From an uncultured Candidatus Saccharibacteria bacterium (lineage in GTDB: Bacteria; Patescibacteriota; Saccharimonadia; Saccharimonadales; UBA10212), in the NCBI GenBank assembly GCA_964625245.1, contig CAZVAN010000001.1, forward strand, positions 1 to 57,741: a DNA stretch of 57,741 nucleotides, in the 5' to 3' direction. The stretch's first letter is position 1. Every line of letters begins with the position of its first letter. Positions 1 through 29,057 of this stretch are shown here, one piece after another. The position numbers and the translations under genes are program-made. Under the pieces are notes generated by a model. The model searched no databases and was not told where the DNA came from. It saw only the letters and a program-made list of their open reading frames with translations.

Positions 1-232
<232 letters not shown>

Positions 233-492: not shown

Positions 493-1800
493 TTATCTCG
501 CTAATGAAGGGTCAGAAGCTTGCTTATGAGCATCCTTGTACAGCTCTACTACTTCGGGTTGGACCTCGCCAAATTGGTCTATGAGGTCGCGAGCTCCTTG
601 CAATATACCGGACTTAATCTTATCGGGGTCAGTCCCAAGGTTAGTTAAACCAGACTCCGGCGGCCACAAAATACCTATGTCAACGTTGTTTTGTTTTTGA
701 ATCCATTCCAGCGATGCGCGAAGCTGATTCTTGGCACTTAAGAACTTCTCCATCGTACCGATTGAGGCTACGCTAGATACAGAACCAGCCGCCTTCAGAA
801 TATTGGAAAAGATGATTTCGCCAGGGGTAACTTCGAGCGATTCCATGCGCATAAAGGGAGTATTTGGCAGTATTAATATATCGTCGGGGTGCAATTCATC
901 AATGATCTTTTGAATAGGCATCGGATCAAAAGCGCCATCTATATAACGACCGCCATTAACCTCTATGGCTTCATTGTAAACCAGCGGAGCAGACATTGAA
1001 GCATGCACAGCAGCCGCCATATTAGGCTTAGCTGTTTTTGCGTTAATAAGCTTAGCCTCATAGGTCTCAGGGTCGGTCGCAACAACATAAAGCTCGGTTG
1101 GGGATTGCTCTACGGCCTTAAAGTCTACACTCTTTTCGCCGTGTGAGGCAGCATCAATAATATAACCGACATCCATAATCTGTTTAACTCGCTTAAAGTC
1201 GATGAAATTTTTGGTTGTAGCTTCGTTGTACCATATATCACCGCCAACACGGCTCTGTTCAGGACCGCCAAGGAAATATGTAGCTGGTCCGGCTCCGCCC
1301 GAAATACCCACCACAGCATCAAAGGCATTACCTAACCCAATTTCGTGCAGACCAATAGTTTGACCCACTGCATAGGGGCTTTTCATGCCACCGCCCATAA
1401 TTAGCATCACTACCTTCCTCTTTTGAGCTTCATGATTGCTGGGATCACGTTTTTCTAACAGATGCTTCATCACCACTTGGAGATTTTCTTGCCAGGCCAG
1501 ATATTCGGGATCTTTTTTCAGATCAAAGTACTCATCATCGTGCAGAGCTTCAGCATGCGCAAAATCGACTGCCGTGGGCGGACTTTCCCAACGATCACCC
1601 CTTTTCCAGTCAATGATCTTTTGGATTCGGCTGCGAGCCTGATATTTTTCGGCTAGATTCCTAAAACGTTGCTGATGAAACTCAAACTCGGCTGGTGGTT
1701 TTTGGTCGTGGTGGCCCTCGGTAGCAATCGAACCAAGTTCTTTCGTAGTGGATTCCGGCACGTTTGTTTGAACAGGTTCCGTAGATTCTTCGACTCGCAT
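493..1800 (-). CDS. Patatin-like phospholipase
   Basis: 435-aa ORF with three patatin hallmarks: a glycine-rich oxyanion loop (MGGGMKS), the nucleophile elbow G-x-S-x-G (GISGG), and the catalytic Asp motif DGAFD. Confidence 0.8.
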   Translation of the reverse strand: MRVEESTEPVQTNVPESTTKELGSIATEGHHDQKPPAEFEFHQQRFRNLAEKYQARSRIQKIIDWKRGDRWESPPTAVDFAHAEALHDDEYFDLKKDPEYLAWQENLQVVMKHLLEKRDPSNHEAQKRKVVMLIMGGGMKSPYAVGQTIGLHEIGLGNAFDAVVGISGGAGPATYFLGGPEQSRVGGDIWYNEATTKNFIDFKRVKQIMDVGYIIDAASHGEKSVDFKAVEQSPTELYVVATDPETYEAKLINAKTAKPNMAAAVHASMSAPLVYNEAIEVNGGRYIDGAFDPMPIQKIIDELHPDDILILPNTPFMRMESLEVTPGEIIFSNILKAAGSVSSVASIGTMEKFLSAKNQLRASLEWIQKQNNVDIGILWPPESGLTNLGTDPDKIKSGILQGARDLIDQFGEVQPEVVELYKDAHKQASDPSLAR

Positions 1801-2680: not shown

Positions 2681-5147
2681 CTTCAGATTTATCCAGTAGG
2701 GCTAACGATACGACACTGTCGCCGTCGTTTAGGCGCATAATACGCACGCCTTGGGTTGCTCGGCCAAGCTCCGGAATGTTGGCCAGGCCGAGACGAATGG
2801 TCTGACCTTGAGCTGAAATAATAATTACTTCTTGGTCGTTACCAATTAGCGTTTTAACGCCTACGAGTTGGCCCGTTTTCTTATTTACAACAGCAGAGCG
2901 AATACCGACACCACCGCGTTTATGGGCTGTAAATTGGCTGACTTTAGTTCGTTTTCCGTAGCCATATTCACTAATTACAAAGATTGATGAATCTTTTTCT
3001 ACAATATCCATACCTATTACATAGTCACCTGTGCGCAGACGAATCCCTCGTACGCCTCTACTAGTGCGGCCCATTGGGCGGGCATCCTTTTCATGGAAGC
3101 GAATGGCTTGGCCTTGTGAGGTCGAAATGATAACTTCATTCTCGCCGCTAGTCATCCTTATCCACTTAAGTTCATCGCCCTCATCAAGACGAATGGCTAT
3201 CAAACCTGTTTGTCGTACGTTTTGATATTGCTCAAAAGGTGTTTTCTTGACTACGCCCTTGACCGTACACATCAATAAGTGCCCGGTTTGAGGGCCTTTG
3301 CTAACGTTTATAACAGATGAAACCACTTCTTCCGGCTGGAGTTGTAGTAAATTAACCAACGCTACTCCCTTAGCGTTTAAGCCAACAGCTGGAACCTCGT
3401 AGGTTTTAATACGGAAAACCCGGCCCTTATTGGTAAAGAATAGTAGAAAATCATGAGTTGAGGCATTCACAACGTGCTCTATGGCGTCTTCCTCGCGAGT
3501 GGCCATGCCCCTCCTACCCTTACCACCGCGGCCCTGACGCTTATAGTCGGCCAGAGAAGTGCGCTTAATGTAGTTGGCTGATGTAAGCGTTACAGCCACT
3601 TGCTCATCCGGCACCAAATCTTCATCACTTAGCCTGCCTAGTTCTTGAGGAATGATTTTGGTGCGTCGTTCGTCACCAAACTGTTTTTTCATCTCCTCAA
3701 GTTCGTCTTTAATAATTTTTAAAATTTTCTTCTCGTCGGCTAGAATAGTTTCTAATTTTCCAATTATTTTAAGAAGTTCAGCAAGCTCGTCCTCTATCTT
3801 CTTACGCTCCAACCCGGCTAGAGTACGGAGTTGCATTGCCAAAATTGCCCGTGCCTGAATTTCAGTAAGTTTAAACTTCTTTATAAGATTTTCCTGAGCT
3901 TCCTCTGTAGTCTGGCTAGCTCGAATTGTGGCTATGACTTCGTCAATGTGATCAAGTGCCGTCTTCAGACCTTCGAGAATATGAGCTCGCTCCCGAGCTT
4001 TTCGCAGTTCAAACTCAGTTCGCTTACGGACCACTACTTGGCGGTGTTTTATGTACTCTACCAGAATGTCTTGAAGACCAAGCACCCTTGGTTGTATGCC
4101 GTCAATCAAGGCCAGCATATTGTAGTGAAAGGCTGTTTGAAGCGGTGTAAGTTTATAAAGTTGGTTGAGTAACTTCTTAGGATAGGCGTCTTTTTTGAGG
4201 TCTACCACAATTCGAACGCTACCACGGGAACTCTCGTCACGAAGATCATTTATGCCAGATATCTTTTTATCACGGACCAGGTCAGCTATCTTCTCGACCA
4301 AGCCTGCTTTATTCACAGCGTATGGTATTTCAGTAATAACGATACGATGGCGACCCTTAGCGGTTTCTTCGATATCGGCTACACCACGAACAACTACACC
4401 CCCGCGACCAGTAGCAAATGCGGTGCGGATAGATTCTTTACCATAAACTACGGCGCCCGTCGGAAAATCTGGTCCCTTAACGTGCTGCATCAGATCGTCT
4501 AGTGTAGCCTCAGGATTATCTATTTGGGTAATAGTAGCATCTATCAGTTCGGTCAAGTTGTGGGGTGGTATATTGGTGGCCATTCCAACTGCAATGCCAA
4601 CCTGACCATTGAGTAGTAGGTTGGGCAGTTTGGCTGGCAAAACTTCCGGTTCCTGCTGAGAGCCATCGAAGTTATCACGAAAAGGCACCGTTTCTTTATC
4701 TATATCCTCAAGCAGTGCTTCGCTGGGTTTAGTCATGCGGGCTTCGGTGTAGCGATAGGCGGCTGCCGGATCGCCGTCCATGCTACCAAAGTTACCCTGG
4801 CCGTCTACAAGTGGATAGCGCGTAGCGAAGGGTTGAGCCAGGCGGACCATGGCGTCATAGATAGCCGTGTCGCCGTGCGGATGGTATTTACCCATGACGT
4901 CACCGACAATCTGGGCACTCTTAGAGTGTTTGCTACCGCTTCTAAGGTTATTCTTGTCCATGACGTACAAAATACGTCGGTGGACTGGTTTGAGGCCATC
5001 TCGGACATCTGGAAGCGCCCGAGCCACAATAACGCTCATTGAGTACTGGAGGTAGCTAGTCTCCATCTCTTCCTCAACTGAACGTGTGAGCACGGTCTTA
5101 GAGTGTTTGCCTATTGTGGGCAGGAGGCCTTTGCTTCTATCGTCCAT
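2625..5147 (-). CDS. gyrA: DNA gyrase subunit A
   Basis: 840-aa ORF with [11 protein letters not shown] (QRDR region), the [10 protein letters not shown] catalytic Tyr region, and a C-terminal repeat (beta-pinwheel-like) region. It lies directly downstream of gyrB. Confidence 0.97.
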
Positions 5148-15049: not shown

Positions 15050-15407
15050 AGCCCAGATTATCGGCTGATTGCCTGCTCTTTTAGTAGCAGGAGGAAAGTC
15101 CGGGCAGTATAGGGTAAAGGCAGTTGCTAACGGCAACCGGGGGTAACCCCAGGGAAAGTGCCACAGAAACGACACAACCATCCGCCGAGAAAGGCGGGTT
15201 GGAACTGGTGAAACGAGTGGGGTAAAAGCCCACAGTCCGTCTGGGTGACTTGGCGGAGAGGTAAACCCTGCCTACTGCAAGGAGATGTGTCGCAACAAGA
15301 GCTACCCGCTCGCGGCGCATCATAAGAACCGCTCGATCCTGCCGGCAACGGCAAGACTAGATAGATAATCAGCTAAAACAGAACCCGGCTTACGGATTTT
15401 CTGGGCT
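15050..15407 (+). ncRNA. rnpB: RNase P RNA (bacterial type)
   Basis: GAGGAAAGTCCGGGC at 15091-15105 and ACAGAACCCGGCTTAC at 15378-15393 (P4 strands). P1 pairs GCCCAGA (15051-15057) with TCTGGGC (15400-15406). An extended -10 TGCTATAAT sits at 15034-15042. Confidence 0.92.
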
Positions 15408-15427
15408 ACATGAAAAAACGCTTCTGC

Positions 15428-16231: not shown

Positions 16232-16293
16232 ATCCCTCTATCTTATAATACTTACCAGCTAATCCTTAAAGGAAAGGTTATCTCTTCGAGTCA

Positions 16294-16390: not shown

Positions 16391-16430
16391 CATATAAAAA
16401 GCCCGGGGTTTAATCCGGGCTTTTTATATG
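16391..16430. terminator. Bidirectional intrinsic terminator
   Basis: Perfect palindrome CATATAAAAAGCCCGG-GGTTTAAT-CCGGGCTTTTTATATG. Confidence 0.7.
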
Positions 16431-16587
16431 GTCGGTGTCGAGCACTTAAATTTACCTCTGCAAGTTTTATGCAAAGTGGGTGCCCTCACAGCCGGACCAC
16501 GGTCCGAACTGCATAGTTGAGCTCCCTTATAAATTTTATTGAGAAAATTTAAACGTGCACTAACCGACCACTATCATTATACACCCG

Positions 16588-17220
16588 TTAAAAAACATTA
16601 GCGCCAAGCAGAGTGTTACTGAGACTATTAATAATGCTTGAGATAGGAACTGATAATACTGTAAAAACAATGAGCATGAAAATTATCAGGCCGTTAACCC
16701 CCATTCTCTCAATCGACTCCATGAATTCTTGAAGGGGTTTGGGTGCAAAGGCGTAAAGAAGCCTGGAGCCGTCAAGAGGAGGCCACGGTATACTGTTAAA
16801 AACAAAGAAGCCAACGTTCACTGCCACACCATAAGCGAATATTTTGAACACTGTCTCCGAAGTGACCTGGGTATGTCTGAATATGGTAGCTACAATTACT
16901 GCAAGTAACAGATTAGTTAAGGGGCCTATCATGCCAACAATCGCGCCCCCAAACTCGCCAAACCTAAGGCGGGCAAAGTTCACCTGGACTGGCTTGGCAG
17001 CCCCAAATGGTACCCCTAGAGTAAGAATTGCCAGTAGGGGCAACGCCACTGTGAAAAAAGGATCAATATGGCGCAGGGGGTTAAGAGTTATTCGCCCTTG
17101 GTGATAGGCTGTATCATCGCCTAACCAATGGCTAGCATAGGCATGCATCATCTCATGGATAGACATTGAAATTAGGACAATTGGCAGCACAATCAGAACT
17201 TTAGACAGCGTGTCACTCAT
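16588..17220 (-). CDS. Site-2 protease family (M50) zinc metalloprotease
   Basis: 210-aa polytopic membrane ORF with HEMMH (HExxH) in the first TM region and the typical RITLNPLRHIDP segment. Confidence 0.8.
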   Translation of the reverse strand: MSDTLSKVLIVLPIVLISMSIHEMMHAYASHWLGDDTAYHQGRITLNPLRHIDPFFTVALPLLAILTLGVPFGAAKPVQVNFARLRFGEFGGAIVGMIGPLTNLLLAVIVATIFRHTQVTSETVFKIFAYGVAVNVGFFVFNSIPWPPLDGSRLLYAFAPKPLQEFMESIERMGVNGLIIFMLIVFTVLSVPISSIINSLSNTLLGANVF

Positions 17221-18135: not shown

Positions 18136-18753
18136 TTAGCTCGGTATTGCCTGGTTATTAATTATAATCTGTTTTTTGGACGCCATAACGTTATTAATAA
18201 AGCGGTCATTTATCTGGATTCTATACTGATAGCTAGTCAGAGGCATGGAGGTGTAGCGAAGTTCCTTGTTCTCTTCTTTTTCAAGATCGGCTATAAACTT
18301 AGCCAGTTTGGCCTGGTTTACATCGCCGACAATCAGTACATCAACGCCACCTGTTTCATCGCGCGTGAACTGTCCAGTTAAAAAGGCAATTTCTACCCTG
18401 CCCAATGCCCGTACCGGCCGCGCCAGTGGATGTTCGGCCACAAGCTCCGGCTCGGTTTCTTGATCCTGGTTTTTGGCTTTCTTAGCTCTCTTTTCAGCCC
18501 TAGGACCAAAAACCATCGAGAGCGGCTTATAGTGCTCGTAGTCTTGGTTAACCTCGTAGTACAACCTGTTGTTATTGCTCTCGGACGTAATGATACCAAT
18601 GCTCAGTAAATTAGCCAGTTCACGGCGAACCGAATTAATCTGTTCCTCTACCTTACGAGTAATTTCACGTACGTAAAACGCGCGGTTAGGATTACTGTAA
18701 AACAGCTGCAGTAGCTTTACCCTGGTTTTTGACCCAAATAGTTGCTCAAACAT
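18136..18753 (-). CDS. Winged-helix (ArsR-like) transcriptional regulator-like protein
   Basis: 205-aa ORF. N-terminus LFGSKTRVKLLQLFYSNPNRAFYVREITRKVEEQINSVRRELANL is a typical wHTH segment. The C-terminal domain is unassigned. Confidence 0.6.
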   Translation of the reverse strand: MFEQLFGSKTRVKLLQLFYSNPNRAFYVREITRKVEEQINSVRRELANLLSIGIITSESNNNRLYYEVNQDYEHYKPLSMVFGPRAEKRAKKAKNQDQETEPELVAEHPLARPVRALGRVEIAFLTGQFTRDETGGVDVLIVGDVNQAKLAKFIADLEKEENKELRYTSMPLTSYQYRIQINDRFINNVMASKKQIIINNQAIPS

Positions 18754-21818: not shown

Positions 21819-21859
21819 CTTGATTTACATCATAACAGTTATGACGGGCGCTCAAAAGT

Positions 21860-21913
21860 CCCTAAAACTGAAAAACCGGCTTAAGCAGTCTCGCAACTTG
21901 CTCAAACCGGTTT
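21860..21913 (-). promoter_or_regulatory. Terminator-like hairpin inside the thrS 5' leader (possible attenuator)
   Basis: On the minus strand, a 14-bp stem AAACCGGTTTGAGC/GCTTAAGCCGGTTT (two G-U pairs) with a 13-nt loop is followed by TTTTTCAGTTTT. It ends ~40 nt upstream of the thrS start codon. Confidence 0.45.
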
Positions 21914-22081
21914 ATATAGCCGTTAACACATCGGCAAAACTCAACCTACGTAGGAGTATATATATACTAGCCGGAAAATGCTAGTACTTTTTTGGTCTCT
22001 TATCCACAGTTTTAGTTTTTGGATTTTTATATCATATATGAGTATTTATTAGATACCATATTTGAGATAGTATAATTAGTC

Positions 22082-22207
22082 TTGGTCTTAAGACTTTTCA
22101 AAATTCCGCAGTGCAGTATTTTGAAAAGTCTAGAGGGGCAACCTAGCCGAGGCTGCAAGTGATTTCTGAATAAGAAATTACGAAGGCCGACGCCTGGGTT
22201 GCGACGA
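22082..22207 (+). ncRNA. Structured leader/ncRNA element directly 5' of tRNA-Val (copy A of a two-copy motif)
   Basis: TATAAT at 22071-22076. A 14-bp hairpin AGACTTTTCAAAAT/ATTTTGAAAAGTCT carries the loop TCCGCAGTGCAGT. A long-range stem GCAACC/GGTTGC encloses hairpin TGATTTC/GAAATTA. It ends with GACGA abutting the tRNA. Homologous to 28852-28982. Confidence 0.5.
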
Positions 22208-22284
22208 GGGCACATAGCTCAGCTGGCTAGAGCGCCACATTGACGTTGTGGATGTCGGGGGTTCAAATCCCTCTGTGCCCACCA
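22208..22284 (+). tRNA. tRNA-Val (anticodon GAC), CCA encoded
   Basis: Acceptor GGGCACA/TGTGCCC, D arm GCTC-AGCTGGCTA-GAGC, anticodon arm CCACA-TTGACGT-TGTGG, T arm GGGGG-TTCAAAT-CCCTC, 3' ACCA. Confidence 0.92.
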
Positions 22285-22316
22285 TATAAAAAACCTACTT
22301 TGTAGGTTTTTTATAT
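22285..22316. terminator. Bidirectional intrinsic terminator (shared by tRNA-Val and tgt)
   Basis: Palindrome ATATAAAAAACCTAC-TTT-GTAGGTTTTTTATAT. Confidence 0.7.
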
Positions 22317-26291: not shown

Positions 26292-26318
26292 ATTAACAGA
26301 TAGAAGTATAGCAAAATT

Positions 26319-26346
26319 TAAAAAACCTCTTTCAAAGAGGTTTTTA
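26319..26346. terminator. Bidirectional intrinsic terminator
   Basis: AAAAAACCTCT-TTCAA-AGAGGTTTTT. Confidence 0.6.
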
Positions 26347-27031: not shown

Positions 27032-27095
27032 ATGGTCTAATTATGTTTTCTGAACAGGTGTAAGTTTAGCAATTTAACCCCTGAAAGGCAACGAG

Positions 27096-28814: not shown

Positions 28815-28851
28815 GCCTATATTGTAACCAAAGATGGCTCGAATAGTTAGA

Positions 28852-28982
28852 TTGGTCTTGTTTACAATTTTACAAATTTCCGCACTGCAGTAATTCGTAA
28901 AATTGAGAGAAGGAGGCGACTTAGGGACCGAAAGTAAGTTAAAATACTAACTTACGGAGGTCGATGCGTCGACTCCGACGAA
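28852..28982 (+). ncRNA. Structured leader/ncRNA element directly 5' of tRNA-Arg (copy B)
   Basis: Candidate promoter TTGTAA-16 nt-TAGTTA (28822-28849). Hairpin CAATTTTACAAA/TTCGTAAAATTG carries the loop TTTCCGCACTGCAGTAA. Long-range stem GGAGGCGAC/GTCGACTCC encloses hairpin GTAAGTTA/TAACTTAC. It ends with GACGAA abutting the tRNA. Confidence 0.5.
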
Positions 28983-29057
28983 GCCCCTGTAGTTCAATGG
29001 ATAAAATAGCTCCGTCCTAAGGAGAAGCTAGAGGTTCGAATCCTCTCGGGGGCACCA
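28983..29057 (+). tRNA. tRNA-Arg (anticodon CCT), CCA encoded
   Basis: Acceptor GCCCCTG/CGGGGGC, anticodon arm (G)CTCC-GTCCTAA-GGAG(A), T arm AGAGG-TTCGAAT-CCTCT, 3' ACCA. The D arm is atypical, so isotype confidence is moderate. Confidence 0.8.

Follow-up and report, generated by a model that had tools for sequence, protein, structure and literature searches.

A lineage-restricted family of structured RNA leaders at the 5' ends of Saccharimonadales tRNAs

Several noncoding RNAs are known to mature through an adjacent tRNA or tRNA-like fold, including MALAT1/mascRNA, MEN-beta, the tRNA-miRNA units of MHV68, the tRNA-snoRNA dicistrons of plants and the co-transcripts of tRNA and C/D box RNA in Nanoarchaeum. 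In bacteria, RNase P also cleaves substrates that are not tRNA precursors (pre-4.5S RNA, pre-tmRNA and the C4 antisense RNA of phages P1 and P7), and spacers of tRNA operons give rise to small RNAs such as the E. coli 3'ETS-leuZ sponge. To our knowledge, bacterial tRNA leaders are usually treated as short, unstructured, throw-away sequence. Here we describe an element of ~125 nucleotides (nt) that lies directly upstream of tRNA-Val and tRNA-Arg in contig CAZVAN010000001.1, positions 1-57,741 (the whole stretch analyzed, hereafter the window), which homologues of its TGT gene place in Candidatus Saccharibacteria (Saccharimonadales). The element represents an uncatalogued, lineage-restricted family of structured tRNA 5' leader RNAs in a subclade of the Saccharimonadales.

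Like the MALAT1/mascRNA-type units, the element is a structured noncoding RNA fused to a tRNA, one end of which would be defined by a tRNA-processing enzyme, and, as in the group that includes Nanoarchaeum, its host has a very small genome. It differs in lying upstream, where RNase P would make its 3' end, whereas most known cases are downstream or use RNase Z; in being bacterial, a single genome having several diverged paralogues before different tRNAs; and in having no similarity of sequence or fold to those units. As for pre-4.5S RNA, pre-tmRNA and C4, an RNase P cut would yield a functional small RNA, but there the functional RNA is the tRNA-like substrate downstream of the cut and here the candidate RNA is the upstream leader; the Rfam model for C4 antisense RNA gave no match to the window copies. 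The element would also resemble 3'ETS-leuZ in that a by-product of tRNA processing acts as an RNA itself, although RNAs of that type are short, little structured, derived from single loci and active through base pairing, in contrast to a covarying two-domain fold of 120 nt with many paralogues. Finally, T-box leaders are likewise long, structured and tied to tRNA, with conserved purine-rich (AGAGA-like) internal loops, yet they are located before aminoacyl-tRNA synthetase or amino-acid genes, recognize tRNA in trans and have a terminator/antiterminator or a sequestering helix at their end, whereas the element has no expression platform.

The window contains two copies of the element on the plus strand, at 22082-22207 before tRNA-Val (W_Val) and at 28852-28982 before tRNA-Arg (W_Arg), each named by the downstream tRNA. 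Both are noncoding and share one architecture, in which the tRNA promoter is followed by an AU-rich hairpin of 41 nt (P1), a purine linker, an irregular rod of 65 nt, the tail GACGA and the first nucleotide of the tRNA (+1). The two leaders have similar predicted folds and are far more stable than shuffled sequences (z = -6.2 for Val, z = -3.95 for Arg). An earlier, sequence-only reading of the window had pointed to these two structured copies and had argued against a segmental duplication, and both points were upheld: the stems of the copies differ by compensatory changes (CAAC/GUUG versus CGAC/GUCG; GGCU/GGCC versus GACC/GGUC), and the pair is not a recent duplication. Several of its details required adjustment. 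The 15-nt sequence TTCCGCA[G/C]TGCAGTA, described as a conserved hairpin loop, is indeed conserved and has exactly two zero-mismatch occurrences in the window, at 22104 and 28878, but most of it forms an apical extension of P1 rather than a loop. The tail GACGA immediately precedes the tRNA in the Val copy, whereas the Arg copy has one extra A. The TATAAT box upstream of the Val copy is present, but at 131 nt from the tRNA and not ~125 nt; a simple sigma-70 scan did not call it because it lacks a good -35 box. The blocks GGC[A/G]AC and TAG, also proposed to be shared, occupy non-homologous positions, as they are out of register in the structure-based family alignment. The region had been said to contain no open reading frame (ORF); a mechanical 62-amino-acid ORF (22027-22215, minus strand) does overlap the Val copy, but a coding role is excluded by rod lengths of 71-87 nt that differ by non-multiples of three and by the compensatory changes.

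To look for this architecture in other genomes, we laid out the 5' flanks of all tRNAs in loci of relatives that are syntenic with the window, which were collected via TGT homologues and one metagenome scan (L-numbers below). Covariance models of the full element (R1, from alignment A3) and of the rod only (R2, from alignment A2 with a hand-written structure) gave 21-22 significant matches in ~443 kb of Saccharimonadales loci and no significant match in 616 kb of TGT loci from other phyla (best E 0.9). A third model (R3), built from seven elements of other genomes with the window copies left out, recovered both copies in the 57.7-kb window, at 28858-28981 (81.7 bits, E ~2e-16) and 22094-22207 (70.3 bits, E ~7e-14), and detected no other match in the whole window up to E = 10. 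The matches are limited to relatives whose TGT is at least ~67% identical to that of the window. The search of related loci for further homologues with covariation, which the sequence-only reading had named as a check, thus yielded ~20 additional members with abundant covariation, in agreement with its proposal of a conserved structured RNA element fused to tRNA 5' ends, which was largely right in kind. Occurrence is sporadic and, as that reading had not anticipated, the element is not tied to particular tRNAs, being found before tRNA-Val, -Arg, -Asp, -Thr, -Pro and -Gly and missing at the tRNA-Val and tRNA-Arg orthologs of L121.

Covariation supports the fold of the rod. In a sequence-only MAFFT alignment of 17 rods, 76% of cells were paired under a hand-written structure, compared with 30-45% when the pairing partners were slid, and 19 of the 22 rod pairs showed changes on both sides; at most 5 of 500 column shuffles reached any of the five observed measures, and none did so for three of them. 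Agreement came from alignments A4 (88% paired, 27 of 35 pairs changed on both sides; for P1, 7 of 9 pairs) and A5 (21 of 22 pairs), which are fitted to a model and therefore biased towards it by construction. When each member was compared with its reverse complement, the sense strand gave the more stable fold in 17 of 21 cases (mean difference -4.6 kcal/mol, Wilcoxon p = 0.002), as expected for a strand-specific fold, that is, an RNA.

A single consensus structure for all rods was tried and rejected, as RNAalifold performed poorly on the plain MAFFT alignment. The rods split into three structural sub-types, so the hand-written structure used above is that of sub-type A (P2-P3-P4-P5), for which RNAalifold recovers the rod unaided. 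Sub-type B has an AUA/GNRA loop and a 4-bp helix, and sub-type C has GAAA/GUYA plus AGCU/AGCU; the sub-types intergrade, with W_Val (A) and L261_Val (B) sharing the same outer helix. Common to all are this outer helix P2, a GGCY/RGCC helix (P5), beside it an internal loop of G-N-A-R opposite (C)G-N-A, and a variable tip (P6), and the unpaired AGAGGA, GACGA and GNAR/GNA loop are kept across all three. The purine linker (consensus AGAGGA) is conserved in at least 70-90% of 22 members. We propose that the linker GGA and the tail GAC may extend P2 by a G-C pair and tandem sheared G.A pairs, of which RNAalifold finds the lone G-C pair; this would account for both flanks being conserved, and only 2 nt would then stay unpaired ahead of the tRNA. 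The apex of P1 consists of C-G, C.A, G-C and C-G pairs and a triloop, with the C.A mismatch replaced by U-A in L247 and L258, and the apical sequence of the window is also present in L333_Asp.

The position of the element relative to the tRNA is nearly invariant. In 18-19 members, which cover six tRNA species, the covariance-model match stops within 0-1 nt of tRNA +1, and only 5 nt separate the rod from the tRNA, which leaves no room for a separate tRNA promoter. The promoter instead lies upstream of the element. Throughout the clade, nearly every tRNA gene is preceded by a TAtAAT box, 4-6 nt and a CTGTT(C/A) motif, with or without an element; where the element is missing, this motif is ~6-8 nt from the tRNA, and the same short leaders occur at other tRNAs of the same genome. 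Because the element is situated between the likely start site and the tRNA, synthesis of the tRNA would require transcription of the element as well, and this placement is strong evidence from position for co-transcription. The L251 flank, which is near-identical to the window, reads CTTGTTCTG where the window has TTGGTCTT. This block is present in both window copies, as the sequence-only reading had listed, but it corresponds to the CTGTTC motif also found at tRNA genes without the element; judging from this comparison, it appears to be the local form of that motif, at least partly a promoter or start-site feature, and probably provides the first transcribed bases of the leader. When whole pre-tRNAs were folded, leader and cloverleaf stayed separate domains. 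Whether preceded by an A-type leader, a B-type leader or none, tRNA-Val has an identical or near-identical sequence, so the leader does not compensate for an odd tRNA. tRNA promoters of this type are also found in the window at 16240-16293, 26292-26320 (minus strand) and 27032-27060 (minus strand), and the CTGTT(C/A) motif resembles the start of the Gram-positive boxA (TGTTCTTT) but sits at the likely start site.

Table 1. Features of the two window copies, their surroundings, and members of the family in relatives. Coordinates refer to the window unless a locus is named.
Feature	Position	Strand	Basis or remark
RNase P RNA, class A, full length	15053..15408	+	Rfam RF00010, 235 bits
-10 box TATAAT of tRNA-Val promoter	22071..22076	+	read directly; same layout at tRNA genes of relatives
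Copy 1, TTGGTCTT, start-site-proximal motif, variant of clade-wide CTGTTC	22082..22089	+	comparison with L251 flank
Copy 1, P1, AU-rich 41-nt hairpin; apical mini-helix TTCCGCAGTGCAGTA at 22104-22118	22091..22131	+	minimum free energy fold
Copy 1, purine linker AGAGGG (family consensus AGAGGA)	22132..22137	+	
Copy 1, rod (P2-P6), irregular 65-nt hairpin, conserved internal loops, variable tip	22138..22202	+	
Copy 1, tail GACGA, flush with tRNA +1; putative RNase P cleavage junction	22203..22207	+	
tRNA-Val(GAC), CCA encoded	22208..22284	+	ARAGORN; Rfam tRNA 68 bits
Terminator-like hairpin and T-run after tRNA-Val (AAAAACCTACTTTGTAGGTTTTTT)	22289..22313	+	read directly
Copy 2, -10-like TAGTTA	28844..28849	+	
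Copy 2, TTGGTCTT	28852..28859	+	
Copy 2, P1 hairpin, 41 nt; apex TTCCGCACTGCAGTA at 28878-28892	28865..28905	+	
Copy 2, purine linker AGAGAA	28906..28911	+	
Copy 2, rod, 65 nt	28912..28976	+	ortholog L266_Arg 81% identical
Copy 2, tail GACGAA, flush with tRNA +1	28977..28982	+	
tRNA-Arg(CCT)	28983..29057	+	ARAGORN; Rfam
Element before tRNA-Asp	L121, L266, L333, L335		
Element before tRNA-Thr	L247, L267		
Element before tRNA-Arg	L123, L247, L266		
Element before tRNA-Val	L246, L254, L257, L258, L261, L331		
Element before tRNA-Pro	L253		
Element before tRNA-Gly	L250		
Inverted copy	L266 6815-6933		abuts CCA end of tRNA-Thr
Inverted copy	L331 4674-4792		Asp ortholog flipped inside leader
Inverted copy	L333 16537-16660		abuts 3' end of 6S-like gene

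The terminator-like hairpin that follows tRNA-Val was not called by our terminator scan, as its AT content is too high for the rule applied. Neighboring genes in the window encode a class II aminoacyl-tRNA synthetase, TGT, NDK, a SurA-like PPIase and a XerC/D-type recombinase.

Comparison of the members indicates a history dominated by vertical descent with loss, as the nearest sequence neighbors of most leaders are orthologs at the same tRNA (W_Arg and L266_Arg, 81%; L123_Arg and L247_Arg, 82%; L257_Val and L258_Val, 79%). This ortholog pairing points to long-term purifying selection in place. Modules are also lost singly, giving P1-only and rod-only forms (L246 has a rod without P1), and they move: W_Arg and L333_Asp have similar P1 hairpins, and rods of the C sub-type are found at Arg, Thr and Asp. 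The spacer between tRNA-Thr and tRNA-Gly is usually 0-4 nt, but that of L250 contains a copy in sense orientation and that of L266 an inverted one. A gene for a Y1 transposase (IS200/RAYT-type, PF01797) is found next to a cutinase gene at syntenic positions in L125 (690-1331), L335 and L336 (both 273-938); its single syntenic copy in three relatives suggests a domesticated RAYT, and no link between it and the leader element was established.

The element does not correspond to a known RNA family, as the sequence-only reading had anticipated. None of the 4227 models of Rfam 15 matched the window copies at gathering thresholds or at E up to 5-10, nor the members in L254 and L258; only the adjacent tRNAs scored. 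In these scans, the reverse complement of ordinary tRNAs scored against RF04354 (Plastid-ycf2 5'UTR) at 23-32 bits, below the gathering score (window 22208-22282 and 28983-29055, minus strand; L258 2267-2341, plus strand), and this model seems to capture antisense tRNA. K-turn, loop E, signal recognition particle RNA, 5S rRNA, 6S RNA and a CsrA sponge were considered and rejected, as geometry or conserved cores did not fit and Rfam returned nothing, and a mini-ORF led by a Shine-Dalgarno sequence was rejected because no start codon follows GGAGG. Three pairing partners were also dismissed: a 6-bp AGAGGG/CCCUCU match between leader and cognate tRNA in W_Val does not generalize, pairing with the 3' ACCA of the tRNA applies to GGUC variants only, and the tail has no partner in RNase P RNA, which contains no UCGUC. 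Targets for the P1 apex within the window were no more frequent than expected by chance. Integron attC sites are not supported, as R''/R' core sites (RYYYAAC ... GTTRRRY) are missing at the element ends, the neighbors are housekeeping genes in conserved synteny, and the nearby tyrosine recombinase gene is present with or without the element. A pattern of the 3' half of the element had 0 matches in viral contigs, BLAST of both window copies found no match among phage or plasmid records, and scans of genomes and viral contigs with the loop pattern TTCCGCANTGCAGTA, whose 14 specified bases are too few, gave chance matches only, one of them in a Saccharibacteria coding region. A literature search found no description of a conserved structured tRNA leader family.

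From the observed position, fold, covariation, strand preference, junction and distribution of the element, we infer, tentatively and with a little less than even confidence, that it is a leader co-transcribed with its tRNA, from which RNase P would free it as a small RNA with a stable structure, the tRNA serving as 3'-end signal. Transcription would start at the ordinary tRNA promoter (TATAAT, then CTGTTC/TTGGTC) and would run through P1, the purine linker, the rod and the tail into the tRNA. RNase P would then cut at tRNA +1, maturing the tRNA and at the same time giving the leader a precise 3' end (...GACGA-OH). The freed RNA of ~115-130 nt would be guarded by a hairpin close to the 5' triphosphate and by a long rod that leaves a 3' overhang of only 2-5 nt, and should therefore resist exonucleases. 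It would most likely act after release as a small structured RNA, and the base of the rod and the purine-rich internal loops, which are conserved, would be contacted by a shared partner, for which a protein is the most plausible candidate. The fixed junction, the stable independent fold, the very short 3' overhang, the conserved unpaired purines common to all paralogues and the indifference of the tRNA to its leader fit such an RNase P-released small RNA, and the presence of RNase P RNA in the window was counted in favor of release. A more elaborate version, in which these ultra-small, episymbiotic bacteria would use "tRNA punctuation" to produce a family of structured small RNAs that serve in trans as protein-binding scaffolds, with the variable P1 and P6 tips providing specificity and the module moving or inverting between stable-RNA genes, appears somewhat unlikely.

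Several observations weigh against release as a small RNA. If GGA of the linker pairs with GAC of the tail, the 2 nt left single-stranded before the cleavage site could hinder RNase P. The count of G.U versus A.C oppositions, a second test of strand, was 68 versus 22 in A4, where it is inflated by a doubtful U.G helix, and 36 versus 35 in A5, where the A-type structure is forced on all sub-types; the argument for strand thus rests on the comparison of sense and antisense energies. The element is dispensable at any single locus: in L121, whose TGT (82% identical) makes it the closest relative, the leaders of tRNA-Val and tRNA-Arg are short and plain and the element is found at tRNA-Asp, and L251 (TGT 81%) has only a P1-like hairpin at tRNA-Val. 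In addition, three copies (L266, L331 and L333) are inverted relative to the neighboring stable-RNA gene, an orientation bias of ~19:3, and these copies cannot mature by RNase P release.

One alternative, which we judge unlikely, is that the leader acts in cis while still attached, tuning the rate of maturation by RNase P or protecting the precursor from 5' exonucleases or Rho, and is then degraded. The strictly fixed distance between rod and tRNA and the invariable location downstream of a tRNA promoter are consistent with this, as is the ability of the conserved tail GAC to extend the rod to position -3, around which RNase P protein normally needs a single-stranded leader. However, the tRNAs are unchanged with or without the leader, orthologous tRNAs manage without it, other tRNAs of the same genome have leaders of only 6-8 nt, and protection alone would leave the conservation of internal-loop and linker sequences across sub-types unexplained. 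It is more improbable still, in our view, that the element is a selfish or neutral repeat, either MITE- or PATE-like or a shuffling spacer that colonizes the transcribed flanks of stable-RNA genes, with hairpins kept for mobility or because a self-folding insert spares the folding of the tRNA. Like REP/BIME, Correia, BOX, ERIC and PATE repeats, the element is a modular hairpin unit of 100-150 bp in transcribed intergenic DNA, patchy in close relatives and occasionally inverted (for example in L331 and L333); three close relatives show three different states at tRNA-Val, the Thr-Gly spacer carries copies in either orientation, modules are swapped between loci, and a Y1 transposase gene is syntenic in three relatives. 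Yet its copies are old and diverged, those of the same genome being only ~60-70% identical and differing throughout their stems by compensatory changes rather than by random decay, and the nearest relatives are mostly orthologs at the same tRNA. We found no terminal inverted repeats or other terminal repeats, and no target duplications when filled and empty sites were compared. Orientation and position at tRNA +1 are near-fixed (~19 of the 22 copies), P1 and rod are unlike each other, in contrast to the paired end hairpins of IS200/IS605, and the genomes with the Y1 gene are not those richest in elements. Empty sites, too, have the left-edge motif G[T/G]TC as a promoter feature, so it is uninformative on mobility.

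Two further explanations retain very little probability. A riboswitch or attenuator that senses a ligand or tRNA, or a ribozyme that cleaves itself and so generates the 5' end of the tRNA, would account for the conserved junction and loop bases among variable stems and for an element placed exactly at the cleavage site. Against this, P1 is followed by AGAGGA and the rod by GACGA, a scan found no intrinsic terminator or attenuator within the elements, neither a terminator nor any other expression platform separates the element from the downstream gene, which is a tRNA, and Rfam 15 gave no match at permissive thresholds to T-box (RF00230), riboswitch or self-cleaving ribozyme models (hammerhead, twister, twister-sister, pistol, hatchet, HDV-like and hairpin); a tRNA made by a ribozyme would also begin with a 5'-OH, the window has an RNase P RNA, and the element is missing at most tRNAs. 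The least probable explanation, a degenerate tandem tRNA (pseudo-tRNA) or tRNA-like remnant upstream of the functional tRNA, was suggested by B-type rods that start like the 5' part of a tRNA (GCACC-AUAGCUC in L246) and by clearly half-tRNA-like leaders before tRNA-Arg in L125, L259 and L267. It is largely refuted, as the tRNA model has no match inside the window copies or the members in L254 and L258 at E up to 10, ARAGORN calls nothing but the tRNAs that follow, and the covarying fold is a rod and a separate hairpin with neither a T arm nor an anticodon arm.

Other leaders were observed in these genomes. The half-tRNA-like leader before tRNA-Arg(CCT) (L125 ~4589-4700, minus strand; L259 ~3400-3484, plus strand; L267 ~1390-1473, plus strand) comprises a stretch that resembles a tRNA acceptor and D arm, followed by a CCCCGCAAAAT...ATTTTGCGGGG hairpin and is not called as a tRNA by ARAGORN; L267 has a similar CCCC/GGGG hairpin between tRNA-Thr and tRNA-Gly. 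tRNA-Pro(GGG) has its own conserved leader (UAGGGAAAGGUAGUAGC ... GUUGAAGGAAAAC ... AGGUUGUCCUUCAA) in L121 (~16400-16488), L267 (~18170-18256) and L333 (~16700-16784) and a short form at 16250-16293 of the window. Its sequence is unrelated to the element, and it may represent a second family of structured tRNA leaders.

The window also contains a probable small-RNA gene of ~150 nt (16396-16590, minus strand) with its own promoter (TGTATAAT) and a clear terminator (GCCCGGATTAAACCCCGGGC and a T-run), the 5' and 3' ends of which pair into a rod with a central bubble. Its ortholog in L333 (16392-16543), with which it shares GAGGGCACCCACTTTGC, gives a weak Rfam match to 6S RNA (21 bits, below the gathering score); the window gene has no such match itself and is a candidate for a divergent form of 6S RNA. 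A noncoding stretch of ~175 nt (21819-22008, plus strand) separates the start of the class II aminoacyl-tRNA synthetase gene from the tRNA-Val promoter; it is conserved in all relatives (...GTTAACACATCGGCAAAACTCAACC...), ends in a terminator-like hairpin and T-run at 21965-21986 and matches no Rfam model. Next comes the only perfect DnaA box of the window (TTATCCACA, 22000-22008); in some relatives, an inverted pair of boxes is present. The left contig edge cuts through a 16S rRNA gene, of which the window has the 5' end (1-232, minus strand).

A covarying fold of 120 nt locked to the predicted RNase P cleavage site is unusual, and the interest of the element comes mainly from its fusion to tRNA 5' ends. 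The two covariance models are a ready tool for a genome-wide census, and the fixed junction between GACGA and the tRNA makes the release hypothesis directly testable. Action of the leader in cis, if true, would represent a novel means by which individual tRNAs have their maturation adjusted. If it is a trans-acting small RNA punctuated by tRNA, it would be a bacterial, upstream-oriented counterpart of MALAT1/mascRNA-type biogenesis. Release as a stable RNA, if true, would make tRNA processing a general route to small-RNA 3' ends in bacteria short of the usual RNases, and would add a new RNA class to the poorly understood Saccharibacteria.

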